Source: Gemmatimonadota bacterium
Lineage (GTDB): Bacteria; Gemmatimonadota; Gemmatimonadetes; Gemmatimonadales; GWC2-71-9
Direction of reading: 5' to 3'
Assembly: GCA_031393795.1 (NCBI GenBank)
Contig: JANMWE010000222.1
Span: 1-41,008 of the forward strand
DNA length: 41,008 bases
The notes under the pieces: model-generated
The model's input: only the letters and a program-made list of their open reading frames with translations
What the model was told of the DNA's origin: nothing
Database searches by the model: none
Program-made: the position numbers and the translations under genes
In this document: positions 20,820 to 38,992 of the stretch, piece by piece
Layout: the number at the start of each line of letters is the position of its first letter
How positions within the stretch are numbered: position 1 is the first letter of the stretch

Positions 20820-21729
20820 TCGGAGGCGGCGGCCCCTCGCCGGGCGTGGGAACGCTCGCCTCTTCCGGGGGAAGTTCCCACCCCGTATCGAGGGCGGCAC
20901 GGCGCGGACGCTCCCGGCGTCGGCGGAGCCACCACGCCACCGCGACCACCAGCCCGACCAGCGACCACCACCCCCCGGCGATGAACCAGAGCACGCCGCG
21001 GAACCGCTGCCGGGTCTCCTGCTGCCACTCCGACTCGAAGCGCGAGAGCTCGCGCCCGGTGACCGAGTGCACCGCATTCGCGAACTCTTCTCCCCGGGCC
21101 AGGCTGTCGATGAGCGGAGCGAGATCCCCGCCGGGGATCCGCTCGGCGAGCGCGCTGACCGCCGACTCGGCGAGTCCGTAGGCCCGATCCGCCATCGGCG
21201 CCGCCGAGCGGAGCTGGCCGTCGAGGTCGCCGAGAGTGGGGACGCCGGTGGCGAGCACGCTCAGGTGCATTTCGAGCGCGGTGAGGCGGTCCCACTCGCC
21301 GGCGGCGAGGGCGGCGTAGCCTTCGTCGAACCAGAGTGGAAGCCGGCTCCGGACGGCGCCCCGGAGGACGAGGTGCGCCAGCTCGTGACGCAGCGTGCGA
21401 GGGAGATCCGGGAGGTCGGCTCGGAGAATGATGGTGCGGCTCTCGGGGAAGGCGACCGCCGCCCCCCACCCCGGGGCGCGCCCCCGGGAGAGCCGGGACA
21501 TCTCCCCCGAATCGGCCACGAGCACGAGCTGGAGCGGCCCCGGCGACCGGCGTCCGAGACCGGGCCAGGTCGTGGGACGATCCGCCAGTTCGGCCAACCC
21601 GATGGCGGCGTCGAGCCGTCGGGCCGTGGCGACGGCGCGAACATCGCCGACCTGGGCCACCCGGAACGAATCGGCCGGGGTCGCCTGTTGGGCGGCCCCG
21701 GCCAGCACCAGCAGCAGCCCCCCGATCAC
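20794..21729 (-). CDS. Membrane-anchored zinc metallopeptidase (peptidase MA-like)
   Basis: GTG 21729 overlaps the upstream stop; signal peptide VIGGLLLVLAGAAQ, HELAH (HExxH) plus PLWFDEGYA, C-terminal TM followed by RRRRER. Confidence 0.8.
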   Translation of the reverse strand: MIGGLLLVLAGAAQQATPADSFRVAQVGDVRAVATARRLDAAIGLAELADRPTTWPGLGRRSPGPLQLVLVADSGEMSRLSRGRAPGWGAAVAFPESRTIILRADLPDLPRTLRHELAHLVLRGAVRSRLPLWFDEGYAALAAGEWDRLTALEMHLSVLATGVPTLGDLDGQLRSAAPMADRAYGLAESAVSALAERIPGGDLAPLIDSLARGEEFANAVHSVTGRELSRFESEWQQETRQRFRGVLWFIAGGWWSLVGLVVAVAWWLRRRRERPRRAALDTGWELPPEEASVPTPGEGPPPPIDQGPQGV

Positions 21730-22604
21730 GCCTGGGTCGCCGTCCGCGGAGGCTCCTCGCCCCTGGCCACGAGGTCGAGCATCTCCTTGCAGCGCTTCCC
21801 CCATGGATTGAACTTGTTGGCCTTGTGTCCGTCGCTCCACGCCTTCTTGGCGCCGTCCGGGTCGCCGGCGAACCAGCGGGCCCGCCCGAGTTCGTACCAG
21901 GCCTCGATCAGGTTGGGGCCGAACTGCAGCGTCTTCTCGAAGAACACCTGCGCATCCTCGAACATCTCGCGCTCGAGGTACACGAGACCGAGATAGTAGT
22001 GCGCGTAGAGGGTGGCCTTGCGGTCGTTGTCGAGCCGGATGGCCTTGGAGAGGTGTTCGATCGCCTCGCCGAAGATCCGCTTCTTGAGGCAGATGTAGCC
22101 GACGTTGATCCGCGCCAGCGAATTGGCCGGCTCCTTCATCAGCACCTTCGAAAAGGTGGCCAGCGCGTCGTCGTAATCCTCGTGCAGCATCTGGGCCCAC
22201 CCGAGCAGCGACTGGGCTTGGACCTCGTTGGGCGAGAGCGTGAGGGCCTTCTCGAGCGCCTGGATGGCCCCGGAGTAATCACCCAGGGAGATCAGGCTCC
22301 ACCCCTTTTCGATGAAGGTGCTCGCCCCGATGTGGTCGGCCTGCACCACGGGGCGCTGGCCCGTGAACATCGGCGCCGGCGCGGTGGCGGTGTCGGCGGC
22401 CTGGGACTTGTACTTGTCCACCAGCTGACGGATATCCTCCTTCAGTTGCCCGAGCTCGGTGAGCGTCCCATCGACCCGCTTGAAGAGGGCGATGATCTCG
22501 CGCTTGACCGTTTCGCGCTCGGCGAACGCCTGGGCGGCGTCGAGCTTGGTGCTGATCTCCTGGTATTGCTGACGGAGCGAGACGACGAATGGTTCAGCAC
22601 TCAT
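21726..22604 (-). CDS. Coiled-coil plus TPR protein
   Basis: Start MSAEPFVV (ATG 22604); N-terminal heptads, then about 5 TPRs (YSGAIQALEKALTLSPNE, AQVFFEKTLQFGPNLIEAWYELG). Confidence 0.85.
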   Translation of the reverse strand: MSAEPFVVSLRQQYQEISTKLDAAQAFAERETVKREIIALFKRVDGTLTELGQLKEDIRQLVDKYKSQAADTATAPAPMFTGQRPVVQADHIGASTFIEKGWSLISLGDYSGAIQALEKALTLSPNEVQAQSLLGWAQMLHEDYDDALATFSKVLMKEPANSLARINVGYICLKKRIFGEAIEHLSKAIRLDNDRKATLYAHYYLGLVYLEREMFEDAQVFFEKTLQFGPNLIEAWYELGRARWFAGDPDGAKKAWSDGHKANKFNPWGKRCKEMLDLVARGEEPPRTATQA

Positions 22605-22611
22605 CGGATGA

Positions 22612-23082
22612 TCAGGCCGCGCCCACGGACTTGAGGGCGAGCCGCTCCTTGGACGACAAGAGCCGCCCGGCGTTGAGGATGACGACGGTCCGCTCACCTT
22701 CGCGCACGAGCAGGCCGCTGATGTATTCGGCGGCGAGGCCCCGCACCAGGGGCGGGGGCGCGGCGATGGCGCCACCGTCCACCCGGGCCACGTCGAGCAC
22801 CTGGTCGACCACGATGCCGACCCGCTGCCCTTCGATGTCCAGGACCATCATCCGCGTCTCCTCCGTCAAGTCGGCCTTGAGCGAGAGCCGCTTCCGCAGG
22901 TCGATGACGGGGACCGAGATCCCTTCGAAGGTCACGACCCCCTCGAGGTAGTCGGGGGATTTGGGGAGGGCGGCGGGCTGTTCGTAGCGCAGGATCCGCT
23001 CGACCTGGAATACGTTCAGGCCGAACTCCTGGCTTCCCACCCGGAAGCACACGATCTGGATCTCGTCGCCGGTGGTCGTCAC
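22612..23082 (-). CDS. cheW: Chemotaxis coupling protein CheW
   Basis: IVCFRVGSQEFGLNVFQVERI, LPKSPDYLEGV, VPVIDLRKRL, VGIVVDQV. GTG start 23082. Confidence 0.92.
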   Translation of the reverse strand: MTTTGDEIQIVCFRVGSQEFGLNVFQVERILRYEQPAALPKSPDYLEGVVTFEGISVPVIDLRKRLSLKADLTEETRMMVLDIEGQRVGIVVDQVLDVARVDGGAIAAPPPLVRGLAAEYISGLLVREGERTVVILNAGRLLSSKERLALKSVGAA

Positions 23083-23504
23083 GTGGAGGCTCCCGCGCCG
23101 GCGATGCGTTCGCCGAGGGCGTTGAGGTCGAGGATCGGGACGGTCCCGTCCTGCTGTCGCGCGATAGCCGCGGCGTAGGGGAGGCCCGGCAGACCGACCG
23201 CCGGCAGCACCTCCCCGCGTTGCACCACAAAAGCGTCGTCGACTTCGAGGCAGATCGGCCGGCCGGCCGCGCGGACCAGCACCGTGGCGGTGCCGCGGGT
23301 CTCGGGTGCGGGGCCTCCGGCGAGGAACGCGCCCAGATGGAGGAGCGGCACGAGGCGCCCGCGCGATTCGATCACGCCCCGCATCGACTCGAGGAGGCTC
23401 GGCGCCGGCAGCACGGCCCCGAGTTCTCCGACCTCGAGCACGTCGGCCGCGGGCAGGCCCAGTCGGCGGCCGTCGGCCTCGACCTCGAGCCAGGTGGCGA
23501 TCAT
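23079..23504 (-). CDS. cheW: Divergent CheW-like protein
   Basis: [41 protein letters not shown]. Confidence 0.78.
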
Positions 23505-38144: not shown

Positions 38145-38148
38145 CGGA

Positions 38149-38511
38149 TCAACCGAGGACGCGCTGCACCGCCTCGAGCACCCGGGAAGGCTGGAACGGC
38201 TTGACGACGAAATCCTTCGCGCCCGCCTGGATCGCCTCGACCACCAGGGCCTGCTGGCCCATCGCGCTGCACATCAGGATCTTGGCGTCGGGATCCTGCC
38301 GGCAGATCTCGCGGACCGCGTCGATACCGCCCATGTCCGGCATCACGATGTCCATCGTGACCAGATCCGGCTTGAGCTGGAAATACTTCTCGACCGCCTG
38401 ACGGCCCGTCTCGGCCTCGCCGACGACCTCGAATCCCGCCTGCTGCAGGATGTCGGAGATCATCGTTCGCATGAAGATGGCGTCGTCGCACACGAGCACG
38501 GTGTGGCTCAC
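38149..38511 (-). CDS. cheY: Single-domain response regulator CheY
   Basis: VLVCDDAIFMR, TMDIVMP, CSAMGQQ, FVVKPF; closely resembles Bacillus/Thermotoga CheY. GTG start 38511 with SD GGAGG. Confidence 0.93.
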   Translation of the reverse strand: MSHTVLVCDDAIFMRTMISDILQQAGFEVVGEAETGRQAVEKYFQLKPDLVTMDIVMPDMGGIDAVREICRQDPDAKILMCSAMGQQALVVEAIQAGAKDFVVKPFQPSRVLEAVQRVLG

Positions 38512-38557
38512 GGAATACCCTCCCGACCGATCGCTACTGGGTGATGTCCTTGGGGGA

Positions 38558-38992
38558 TCATGCCCCGAGCACCGGCGCCAGCAGCGCATCGGTGTCGAGC
38601 ACTACAAAGAGACCGTCCTCACGCCGGCCCACCGCCCGTACCACGCGCGGATCGAGGCCCGGCAGACCCTCACGTCCTTCGAGGGCACTGGCGGGGATCG
38701 TCGTCAGGTCGAGCACCTTGTCGACCGCGAGCCCCACCGATTTCCCGTTCATCTCGAGCACCAGCACGCTCCGGTCCGTCACCAGCGACGGCCGCCCCAG
38801 GAGGCGGGACCCGTCGATCACCGTGAGGAGCCTGCCTCGCACGTTCGCCAACCCTTCCACCGCGTCGCCGGCCCCCGGGATACGGGTGCCACGTTCGAAC
38901 GGGACGATCTCCTTGGCGGTCTCGACCGGCACCGCGCAGGTCAGGTCGCCGACCAGAAAGACCAGGAGTCGGAGGGGAGCGGTATCAGCCAT
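38558..38992 (-). CDS. cheW: Chemotaxis coupling protein CheW
   Basis: LLVFLVG, TRIPGA..AVEGLANVRGRLLTVID, VGLAVDKV. ATG 38992 overlaps the 3' end of rluD. Confidence 0.9.
   Translation of the reverse strand: MADTAPLRLLVFLVGDLTCAVPVETAKEIVPFERGTRIPGAGDAVEGLANVRGRLLTVIDGSRLLGRPSLVTDRSVLVLEMNGKSVGLAVDKVLDLTTIPASALEGREGLPGLDPRVVRAVGRREDGLFVVLDTDALLAPVLGA

Follow-up and report, generated by a model that had tools for sequence, protein, structure and literature searches.

A chemosensory gene cluster enclosing a putative MglA/MglB-type polarity module and a tandem DnaA-type ATPase in Gemmatimonadales

We describe a gene cluster in which chemotaxis (Che) genes flank an MglA/MglB-type small-GTPase module, two proteins that combine PATAN (DUF4388) and tetratricopeptide repeat (TPR) domains, and a tandem DnaA-type AAA+ ATPase that we call DnaA2. 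The cluster lies on the minus strand at positions 21726-38992 of a 41,008-nt stretch (contig JANMWE010000222.1; the whole stretch is hereafter the window) from an uncultured Gemmatimonadales metagenome-assembled genome (MAG) of 2.64 Mb, which comprises 319 contigs and is 92.9% complete. We propose, with moderate confidence, that the chemosensory pathway steers the MglA-type polarity module and that the machine so controlled is probably the type IV pilus. Gene content, conservation, layering, the MshEN motifs of the PATAN proteins and the absence of FliG and FliM matches are established for this cluster and its genome. Chemosensory action on MglA/MglB is known from Myxococcus xanthus; what appears to be new here, judged from the genes, is an operon-encoded form with PATAN-MshEN-TPR adaptors and a phylum-specific tandem DnaA-type ATPase.

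Eighteen genes fill the interval, with starts chosen from open reading frame (ORF) lists that are crowded because the DNA of the window is ~70% G+C. The original prediction, made from the letters of the window, had described 18 co-oriented genes with much this domain content; all 18 are indeed on the minus strand, and a Pfam profile search agrees almost fully. The first gene encodes a 144-aa CheW (38558-38992; Pfam CheW 95.5 bits) and is followed by genes for CheY, a single receiver (REC) domain of 120 aa (38149-38511; Response_reg 108 bits), CheA, with Hpt, P2, dimerisation, HATPase and CheW domains in 632 aa and no receiver domain (36246-38144; Pfam), and a 206-aa CheC-type phosphatase of phosphorylated CheY (CheY-P; 35616-36236; CheC 65.3 bits in two stretches). 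The embedded genes begin with an all-TPR protein of 907 aa (32888-35611; Pfam TPR families) and a 378-aa PATAN-TPR protein (31749-32885; DUF4388 109.7 bits), in which an MshEN-like four-helix insertion at about residues 59-121 precedes a 3-TPR domain. Next come a 281-aa fusion of TPR and Roadblock/LC7 domains (30907-31752; TPR families, Robl_LC7 27.1 bits), a 117-aa Roadblock/LC7 protein (30557-30910; Robl_LC7 42.7 bits; PDB 7f8m_A, E 1e-8) and a 153-aa MglB-like Roadblock protein (30096-30557; M. xanthus MglB 6h5b_B, E 1.2e-8). They are followed by the MglA paralogue (MglA2, 201 aa; 29486-30091), DnaA2 itself, with two DnaA-type AAA+ modules in 661 aa (27504-29489; Bac_DnaA 324 bits in two stretches), and a 540-aa PATAN-TPR protein (25882-27504; DUF4388 128 bits) that has a 53-residue MshEN-type domain (57-110) and a long TPR solenoid. 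The remaining Che genes encode CheR methyltransferase (275 aa; 25058-25885; CheR 168 bits, CheR_N 51 bits), CheD deamidase (162 aa; 24573-25061; CheD 94.7 bits), CheB methylesterase with a REC domain (23501-24622, start at 24622 or 24589; CheB_methylest 212 bits, Response_reg 73 bits), a divergent CheW of 141 aa (23079-23504; CheW 56.2 bits) and a CheW of 156 aa (22612-23082; CheW 113 bits). A coiled-coil and TPR protein of 292 aa (21726-22604; Pfam TPR families) is last.

Overlapping stop and start codons had been predicted for most junctions, and 10 of the 17 do overlap, by 1-17 nt; six have gaps of 2-9 nt and one a gap of 46 nt. The limits originally given for the tight run did not hold, since the stop of rluD overlaps the start of the first cheW by 8 nt and a GTG start at 21729 puts the Peptidase_MA gene 4 nt inside the last TPR gene. 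The tight co-oriented run extends past 21726 and 38992, and the ends of the cluster are not operon ends. The 907-aa TPR protein keeps its place in relatives at 33-62% identity and is a candidate scaffold or GTPase effector. Its NCBIfam match to MamA (226 bits, cut-off 200) was taken as repeat likeness, not orthology; NCBIfam gave only generic TPR families, below cut-off, for the remaining TPR proteins of the cluster.

The arrangement is far beyond chance, because the gene order recurs in relatives at 42-93% protein identity. We mapped the 18 proteins on 19 loci hand-picked, not randomly drawn, to span families. The whole architecture is present in the same order in ten of them (L031, L032, L033, L036, L037 and L039-L043), from the window's family (f1) and from families f2 and f3, and five of these ten have all 18 genes as separate best matches. 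Identities in the conserved loci range from ~42% for CheA to 93% for CheY; the most conserved proteins are CheY (80-93%) and MglA (60-87%, with 38% in one divergent genus). The 292-aa TPR protein is 36-80% identical (46-80% in all but one locus) and is retained even where Che genes are missing. The nine remaining loci carry less. The last two cheW genes are missing from L044, and cheR, cheB and the same two cheW genes from L035; L034, whose MglA is divergent (38% identical), has none of cheR, cheD, cheB and these cheW genes; in L045 and L046, from two complete f2 genomes, cheR is missing and the Roadblock genes were not detected. In L038, of genus g27, the full Mgl/Roadblock/PATAN/DnaA2/TPR module stands flush against rluD with no Che gene. 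The f4 locus (L047) has Roadblock, TPR, PATAN and DnaA2 genes without Che genes or MglA, and the two f7 loci (L048, L049) have only DnaA2 and a PATAN-TPR gene of the 540-aa type.

The distribution of DnaA2 is wider than that of the whole architecture. Among 400 sampled genomes of the phylum, full-length DnaA2 (E <= 1e-100; counts read by hand from tables) was found in 157/166 genomes of f1, 54/93 of f2, 5/5 of f3 and 4/7 of f4, and in none of f5, f6 or f8-f12; f7 gave weaker matches (e-71 to e-98) in ~17/70 genomes. These counts include the unpublished genomes G057 and G182 (f1), G157 (f2) and G097 (f8), and without them stand at 155/164 for f1 and 53/92 for f2; the FliG, CheA, PilM and MglA counts given below include the same genomes, on which no individual claim depends. 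We also scanned one genome per species across all prokaryotes, using three distant DnaA2 relatives as query, and confirmed 176 stretches. The best 80 of these 176 bear the titles of Gemmatimonadota, Gemmatimonadales or Longimicrobiales MAGs, save two titled 'uncultured bacterium'. They share a block of rluD, DnaA2, PATAN-TPR and Peptidase_MA genes, with rluD directly upstream of DnaA2 in 79, PATAN-TPR beside DnaA2 in 78 and Peptidase_MA in 77; no Mgl, Roadblock or Che gene was found in these best 80 loci. Homologues of DnaA2 that bear organism names are assigned to Gemmatimonadales or Gemmatimonadota without exception, and in a protein-language-model atlas Gemmatimonadota is the commonest phylum in every cluster of full-length DnaA2 look-alikes.

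These patterns show a layered cluster, the layers denoting distribution across taxa and not direction of gain or loss. A phylum-wide core, which would be the oldest layer, consists of DnaA2 and the PATAN-TPR protein with its MshEN-type insertion, a pair common to Gemmatimonadota. An order-level polarity-GTPase layer adds the MglA paralogue, the MglB-type GTPase-activating protein (GAP), two further Roadblock proteins, the other PATAN-MshEN-TPR protein and another two proteins with TPR domains, which together would make the kit of a small-GTPase polarity switch. The Che layer, sometimes absent, brings three CheW, CheA, CheY, CheC, CheR, CheD and CheB around both sides, with methyl-accepting chemotaxis proteins (MCPs) encoded elsewhere. 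The original prediction depended on Che and Mgl genes being linked in related genomes: the linkage is kept across three families of the order, and it gives way in g27, where 0/4 sampled genomes have a CheA match. The Che layer is dispensable, as g27 keeps the Mgl/PATAN/DnaA2 module all the same.

Some loci show variants of their own. In L039, L040 and L041 (f2), ~1 kb of extra DNA separates the cheB and cheW genes, which in f1 overlap by 4 nt. The L034 form (genome G233), shared with genus g11, has CheA matches only outside query residues 77-257, and so no match to the P2 region, has no CheR, CheD, CheB or CheW, and has an MglA 38-44% identical to that of the cluster; within g11 the dimerisation domain of CheA is matched only weakly (E 1e-4 to 1e-8), and FliG occurs in 8/15 genomes. 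A receiver-domain gene after Peptidase_MA in the Longimicrobiales-type loci was considered as a part of the module and rejected, as in L111 it reads as REC plus an ABC-F ATPase. There (L111:14247-16799, and at the same position in most of L050-L129) a receiver domain is followed by an ABC-F-type double ATPase, either as one fused gene or as two in frame.

The GTPase at the centre of the cluster is a clear MglA homologue, matching PDB chains 6hjh_A (M. xanthus MglA; E 6.4e-72) and 3t12_A (E 7.3e-65) over residues 1-194. Group-1 MglA proteins are recognised by an intrinsic arginine next to the G2 threonine and by the G3 motif TVPGQ, as given in the available text of PMC4316618. Both hallmarks are present in the cluster protein, the arginine within TDRTLFFDF and the G3 motif as YTVPGQ, column-aligned with M. 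xanthus MglA. The mglB-like gene precedes mglA by 4 nt. Its product scores 21.9 bits with Pfam Robl_LC7, just below the cut-off of 23, and 40.7 bits with NCBIfam MglB, below the cut-off of 200; its sole significant PDB matches are MglB chains (E 1e-8), and it is presumed to be the GAP of the adjacent MglA. Two MglA matches occur in 68 of 81 sampled genomes of the order: the first adjoins DnaA2 and shares 60-87% identity with the cluster copy, and the other is of ~229 aa and 60-66% identical. Because most genomes carry these two types, one of them beside DnaA2, the cluster MglA is by its distribution a dedicated extra paralogue. Seven genomes without a DnaA2-level match (G043, G052, G072, G074, G085, G089 and G091) have canonical MglA only. 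Genus g54 is an exception: G036 and G047 have no DnaA2-level match, yet carry cluster-type MglA at 67-68% identity, so DnaA2 can apparently be lost from the cluster. In these two genomes (G036:C12 and G047:C4) the cluster-type MglA lies ~6 kb from a CheA. The canonical MglA of the window's genome, on contig C72, has a ~35-residue insertion near its C-terminus.

The two PATAN proteins score far above the DUF4388 (PF14332) gathering cut-off of 25, and in both the Pfam match is split by an insertion. MshEN consists of two tandem 24-residue motifs, RLGxx[LVI][LVI]xxG[LVI][LVI]xxxxLxxxLxxQ, with a five-residue spacer (available text of PMC5013675). We scanned the 18 proteins with the relaxed motif of that paper, allowing at most one mismatch, and obtained matches in the two PATAN proteins only, at residues 57 (one mismatch) and 87 (no mismatch) of the 540-aa protein and at residue 89 (no mismatch) of the 378-aa protein. 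Across 14 orthologues of the 378-aa protein and 23 PATAN N-termini, the residues of the motifs are retained; what separates the two motifs is a spacer of 6 residues in each window protein and of 6-7 in orthologues, not the five of MshEN. NCBIfam NF053729, a 53-position c-di-GMP_motif profile related to MshE, scores 49.0 bits on the 540-aa protein against a cut-off of 38. Pfam T2SSE_N had no match in either PATAN protein at E<0.01.

A structural model of the 378-aa protein reached a pLDDT of 84.6 over its full length. In a fold search this full model matched nothing but 3-TPR domains of a generic peptide-binding kind, such as those of Hip, CHIP, Sgt2 and Hop, and the search was repeated with the N-terminal 170 residues, whose model (pLDDT 88.2, predicted template modelling score 0.79) has four helices at 60-121. 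Among 350,542 PDB chains, the top six matches of this region were cyclic di-GMP (c-di-GMP)-bound MshE (5htl_B) and five Thermus thermophilus PilF GSPII-B entries (8pdk_A is among the fold matches), at 33-38% identity, root-mean-square deviation (rmsd) 1.1-2.4 A over 54-58 columns and probability 0.99-1.00; the 5htl_B match has an rmsd of 1.1 A over 54 columns at 33% identity, and the first match beyond these six falls to a probability of 0.06. The PATAN core had no solved relative among the PDB chains. Profile, motif and model thus support the DUF4388-MshEN label of the original prediction and make both PATAN proteins likely c-di-GMP sensors, with binding as a prediction. Three values count on the other side: the first motif of the 378-aa protein, at residue 59, has two mismatches; NF053729 gives that protein 34.8 bits, below cut-off; and the E-values of the fold search are weak (0.05-0.26), because only ~55 residues align.

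By alignment, both AAA+ modules of DnaA2 carry Walker A and B motifs; its linker is conserved, as is its C-terminal tail, EKxVWxWPxxxDRxxEE. DnaA2 has no match at E<0.01 to Bac_DnaA_C (domain IV) or DnaA_N (domain I), and the 437-position profile TIGR00362 matches it only at positions 102-335. Distant relatives carry a degenerate second Walker A. The canonical DnaA of the genome is separate, on contig C201, and DnaA2 is 42% identical to it. A DnaA-type AAA+ module 38-41% identical to module 1 of DnaA2 also occurs within the far larger architectures of five proteins of 1370-1990 aa from unknown sources (P0182, P0183, P0217, P0244 and P0247).

Because DnaA2 and the 540-aa PATAN-TPR protein are neighbours phylum-wide, and because TPR domains often hold C-terminal peptides, we modelled their complex, using the full 540-aa protein and DnaA2 residues 250-661, each as a 19-row alignment. 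The interface score (ipSAE) was 0.81 in three runs, and the best of three controls scored 0.00. The mark applied to ipSAE is reached by 58/80 solved complexes and 2/110 mismatched pairs, counts that are rough here, where our own alignments were used. The runs share at least 49% of contacts, with partner pLDDT of at least 73, and the confident interface runs from DnaA2 residues 636-661 along TPR residues 284-494. Tail residues E643, W649 and P650 in this interface are invariant in the DnaA2 alignment (A6), as are groove residues N428, K461 and D465 in the PATAN-TPR alignment (A5). The prediction supports, and does not show, binding between the two proteins. With a conserved acidic and aromatic tail predicted to lie in the TPR groove, DnaA2 and the 540-aa protein probably form one complex responding to ATP and c-di-GMP.

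The Che set of the cluster is the only one in the genome: a genome-wide tblastn search with the 18 proteins found no second CheA, CheW, CheC, CheD, CheR or CheB methylesterase, and the CheA dimerisation domain (H-kinase_dim) matches once. Four MCP genes all lie outside the cluster, on other contigs. The system had been called self-contained; because its MCPs are encoded on other contigs, it is not, and a canonical mglBA pair is also found elsewhere. Frz-type and Pil-Chp (TFP-class) systems have a CheA fused to a receiver domain (FrzE and ChpA), and the cluster CheA, with no such domain, is not of that kind. Class F1 of the MiST scheme is characterised by CheC and CheD, a five-domain CheA and a Thermotoga- or Bacillus-type CheY. 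All of these have counterparts here, so that the chemosensory system resembles flagellar class F1, as a matter of resemblance only. No match to FliG_C or FliM was found in this genome, and FliG was also not found in three genomes of the same genus; because neither FliG nor FliM matched, a flagellar output is unlikely in this genome. The genome also has PilM and seven matches to ATPases of the T2SSE family. Two of the T2SSE-family genes are PilB-like (G000:C126:571-2277 and G000:C251:3047-4693, in open frames of 765 and 747 aa), and each directly precedes a CheY-like receiver gene whose product is 32-33% identical to the cluster CheY.

From these elements we propose the following working. MCP arrays, built with the three CheW proteins, would control CheA, and CheY-P, kept short-lived by CheC, would bind a component of the embedded module, either a Roadblock/MglB protein or a PATAN protein. 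Binding would shift the GTP/GDP balance or the location of MglA and so re-set the active pole. ATP and c-di-GMP binding by the PATAN/DnaA2 complex would gate this response, the TPR proteins would scaffold effectors, and CheR, CheB and CheD would adapt the receptors. The contact between the DnaA2 tail and the TPR groove, and the binding of c-di-GMP, enter this scheme as model predictions; the target of CheY-P, the role of the GTPase and the pilus output are what we infer. Type IV pilus polarity is the most likely output by analogy, given two precedents and the gene content of the genome, which has PilM and PilB/PilT-type ATPases and no flagellar switch genes. In M. xanthus, Frz signals to MglA/MglB, and MglA/MglB genes sometimes adjoin PATAN genes (available text of PMC4316618); in Synechocystis, PATAN regulators are described as binding the pilus motor (10.1101/2021.06.11.447907, in part).

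Several observations weigh against this proposal, besides the three values noted for the PATAN proteins. PilM_2 matches in 390/401 sampled genomes of the phylum and is thus near-universal, so co-occurrence with pili discriminates nothing, and we dropped it as evidence. The canonical mglB-mglA pair on contig C72, between recR and pgsA (L142 4176-5364), has an MglA closer to that of M. xanthus (E 1e-84) than the cluster copy is (E 6e-72), and this pair may be the one that runs pilus polarity. It is from conserved gene order alone that we infer an action of CheY-P on the GTPase module. The score of the modelled complex may partly reflect likeness to solved structures, because TPR-peptide complexes are common among them. 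A DnaA-type ATPase in the cluster core and the proximity of division and cell wall (dcw) genes point away from motility, and in 12/12 Gemmatimonadales genomes tested the cluster is followed by Peptidase_MA and then the dcw cluster in the same orientation. Other features point to a flagellum. The cluster CheY shares ~70% identity with its flagellar counterpart in Thermotoga maritima (E 3e-51 to 1tmy), and CheC and CheD are typical of Thermotoga-type flagellar chemosensory systems. Among flagellated relatives, G284 has its sole CheA match inside the mapped cluster locus, and G365 has its only one ~8 kb from DnaA2 on the same contig.

A broader reading, which we regard as rather unlikely, would make the DnaA2/PATAN-TPR core a phylum-specific polarity organiser to which nothing described so far corresponds. 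A DnaA-like tandem AAA+ ATPase, its C-terminal tail anchored on a PATAN-TPR protein that binds c-di-GMP, would define a pole or division site through initiator-type ATP switching, and in Gemmatimonadales this organiser would have been wired to MglA/MglB and then to Che. If true, this would be the first case of chemoreceptor input, a Ras-like GTPase, c-di-GMP and a replication-initiator-like ATPase converging in one operon-encoded machine.

The main rival, though unlikely too, is a module for cell-cycle or division polarity, in which the core together with MglA and Roadblock proteins would mark the pole or division site, as in asymmetric or budding division, coupled to initiator-like ATP switching, and the Che proteins would feed the environment into the decision. 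Its case starts from position, with the cluster immediately upstream of co-oriented genes for Peptidase_MA, a 584-aa protein and the dcw products (1714-18439, ~3 kb downstream of the Che-Mgl cluster on the minus strand; mraW-ftsI-murE-murF-mraY-murD-ftsW-murG-murC-ftsQ-ftsA-ftsZ plus an M23 peptidase). It gains from a core protein made of DnaA-type modules and from core pairs in lineages where neither Mgl nor Che genes adjoin; Gemmatimonas divides by budding. However, the best 80 loci of the wide scan, of Longimicrobiales type, keep rluD and Peptidase_MA with no dcw gene within ~8 kb downstream, so that adjacency to dcw is an order-level feature and maybe inherited synteny. DnaA2 also lacks the DNA-binding domain IV and domain I, and the precedents for MglA, PATAN and MshEN, in the available texts, all concern pili or motility.

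The cluster might instead be a flagellar chemotaxis operon of Thermotoga or Bacillus type, its embedded genes placing a polar flagellum or being mere passengers, and a relic where flagella are missing. We consider this improbable. The likeness of CheY, the presence of CheC and CheD, the five-domain CheA and the two flagellated genomes with cluster-linked CheA only all speak for it, as does FliG_C in 32/166 f1 and 47/93 f2 genomes; cultured Gemmatimonas is described as having a polar flagellum (PMC9862903, in part). Yet CheA matches, which are not strict copy numbers, occur in 152/166 f1 and 84/93 f2 genomes, and a cross-tabulation made by hand from tables finds them in 121 of the 134 FliG-negative f1 genomes. 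The mapped cluster proteins, 42-93% identical and free of stops, are also unlike relics. Two or more CheA matches occur in 19/32 FliG-positive against 28/134 FliG-negative f1 genomes by the same count. The flagellated genomes G122, G165 and G045 carry, at 30-40 kb from fliG, a further Che set of another kind, with a CheA 37-39% identical, CheW, CheB and CheR, CheY-like genes 27-34% identical in two of the three loci, and no CheC or CheD found. Flagella are thus usually accompanied by a Che system of their own, and the cluster persists where they are missing. The original prediction of a non-flagellar output is supported for the window's genome, which has no FliG or FliM match; it may not carry over to some relatives, where a flagellar role is possible because CheY is so like that of T. 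maritima and because G284 and G365 have only cluster-linked CheA. The co-occurrence with pili as against flagella that it had proposed as a check was informative on one side alone: CheA matches persist in FliG-negative genomes, and PilM is too common to discriminate.

Finally, co-linearity without function, with slow rearrangement in the phylum keeping several independent systems side by side, would fit a 41-kb window that is co-oriented throughout and whose dksA, lspA, rluD and dcw genes are equally syntenic, a sign that synteny is generally well kept, but it is highly improbable in view of the stop/start overlaps at 10/17 junctions, the Che genes on both sides of the module rather than in one block, the co-occurrence of cluster MglA with DnaA2 (seven genomes lack both; g54 is a partial exception) and the predicted specific docking of DnaA2 on PATAN-TPR.

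The nearest known counterpart to the proposed chemosensory steering of MglA is the M. xanthus Frz-MglA/MglB system, of which FrzX and FrzZ are components. Both there (with RomR) and here, a pathway of CheA, CheW, CheR and CheB type goes with a group-1 MglA and an MglB Roadblock GAP (PMC3441718, PMC4316618, PMC4719450 and PMC7519303, each in part). According to the same partial texts, M. xanthus also has an extra Roadblock paralogue (MglC) and a TPR effector (SgmX), which are matched here by additional Roadblock proteins and by TPR proteins. In contrast to Frz, the genes here form one tight cluster that includes cheC and cheD, its CheA lacks a receiver domain, and a plain CheY, ~70% identical to the T. 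maritima protein, is the response regulator; the PATAN-MshEN-TPR proteins and the tandem DnaA-type ATPase have no counterpart in the available descriptions of Frz. A further difference from M. xanthus is that the MglA of the cluster is an additional paralogue in a genome that also has a canonical mglBA pair.

Other systems share single elements. Cyanobacterial PatA-type (PATAN-REC) regulators of Tax/Pix systems also place PATAN downstream of a chemotaxis-like pathway, where it binds the type IV pilus motor (10.1101/2021.06.11.447907, in part); there PATAN is fused to the receiver, whereas here it is fused to TPR with an MshEN insertion and CheY is separate. The insertion resembles the MshEN/GSPII-B units of Vibrio cholerae MshE and T. 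thermophilus PilF in its two tandem 24-residue RLGxx..Q motifs and four-helix unit (available text of PMC5013675), but is placed within a PATAN domain predicted to bind c-di-GMP and not N-terminally on a pilus or secretion ATPase, and its spacer is 6-7 residues instead of 5. Both DnaA2 modules match Bac_DnaA and carry Walker A and B motifs as DnaA/Hda proteins do, and NCBI names relatives 'DnaA/Hda family protein'; DnaA2 departs from these in having two AAA+ modules in tandem, no domain I or IV, and a conserved linker and tail. Actinobacterial conservons (CvnA-D) likewise combine, within one operon, a histidine kinase with a homologue of Roadblock/MglB and a GTPase of the MglA family, although in the available text of PMC4316618 that GTPase belongs to group 2 and is paired with a membrane sensor kinase, in contrast to the group-1-type MglA and the CheA with a full adaptation set found here.

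According to the original prediction this architecture is not known to have been described functionally, and the literature searched agrees. We found no account there of Che genes surrounding mglA/mglB together with PATAN and DnaA-like genes, although supplementary tables (S2 of PMC4316618, 3-5 of PMC5013675) may list the genes. The survey PMC4316618, in its available text, reports occasional PATAN neighbours of group-1 and group-5 mglA and counts Gemmatimonadetes among the group-1 phyla; CheA, TPR and DnaA do not occur in its main text. A survey of Geobacter che clusters contains no MglA, Roadblock, GTPase, TPR or DnaA term. The DnaA-like/PATAN pair was likewise not found described in the available texts of the literature searched, which included PMC4316618, PMC2577667, PMC5013675, PMC9862903 and 10.1101/2021.06.11.447907.

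The cluster supplies a short list of candidates for the step, still missing, that would connect CheY-P with a small GTPase, and its graded versions across the order (the core; with Roadblock/TPR; with MglA; with Che) form a natural dissection series. The helical insertion of many PATAN domains may be a c-di-GMP sensor, and AAA+ modules of the DnaA type may have been co-opted for roles other than replication. Gemmatimonadota are abundant in soils and sediments, and their cell biology is almost unstudied; the metagenomes that carry the DNA of window positions 25000-33000 are from sediment, freshwater sediment and soil. Since the complete sister-family genomes G067 and G103 have a reduced cluster, a cultured relative may be usable experimentally.

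Around the cluster, all genes identified in the window lie on the minus strand, two tRNA genes and the dcw cluster among them. Upstream, the order is dksA-lspA-rluD. The RluD-type pseudouridine synthase (38985-40103; Pfam PseudoU_synth_2 and S4) is a conserved neighbour whose membership in the cluster is uncertain. Downstream follow Peptidase_MA, tRNA-Val, the 584-aa protein, tRNA-Asp, the dcw cluster, in which mraZ was not seen, and the M23 peptidase. The Peptidase_MA_2 protein (20794-21729; Pfam 46 bits) has an HExxH motif and hydrophobic ends, and its gene may belong to an ancestral unit with DnaA2 and PATAN-TPR, because its start overlaps the preceding gene by 4 nt and it accompanies the core pair phylum-wide. 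A scan of 21009-41008 found no promoter-like site and four terminator-like sites, where shuffled sequence gave 0.5 and 4.8, and has no bearing on transcription units. Between the cluster and the dcw genes lie tRNA-Val(TAC) at 20511-20585 and tRNA-Asp(GTC) at 18503-18578, and between these two the 584-aa protein (18686-20440), which has a signal-peptide-like N-terminus, no Pfam family, and weak homologues (20-40% identity) at the equivalent position in relatives.

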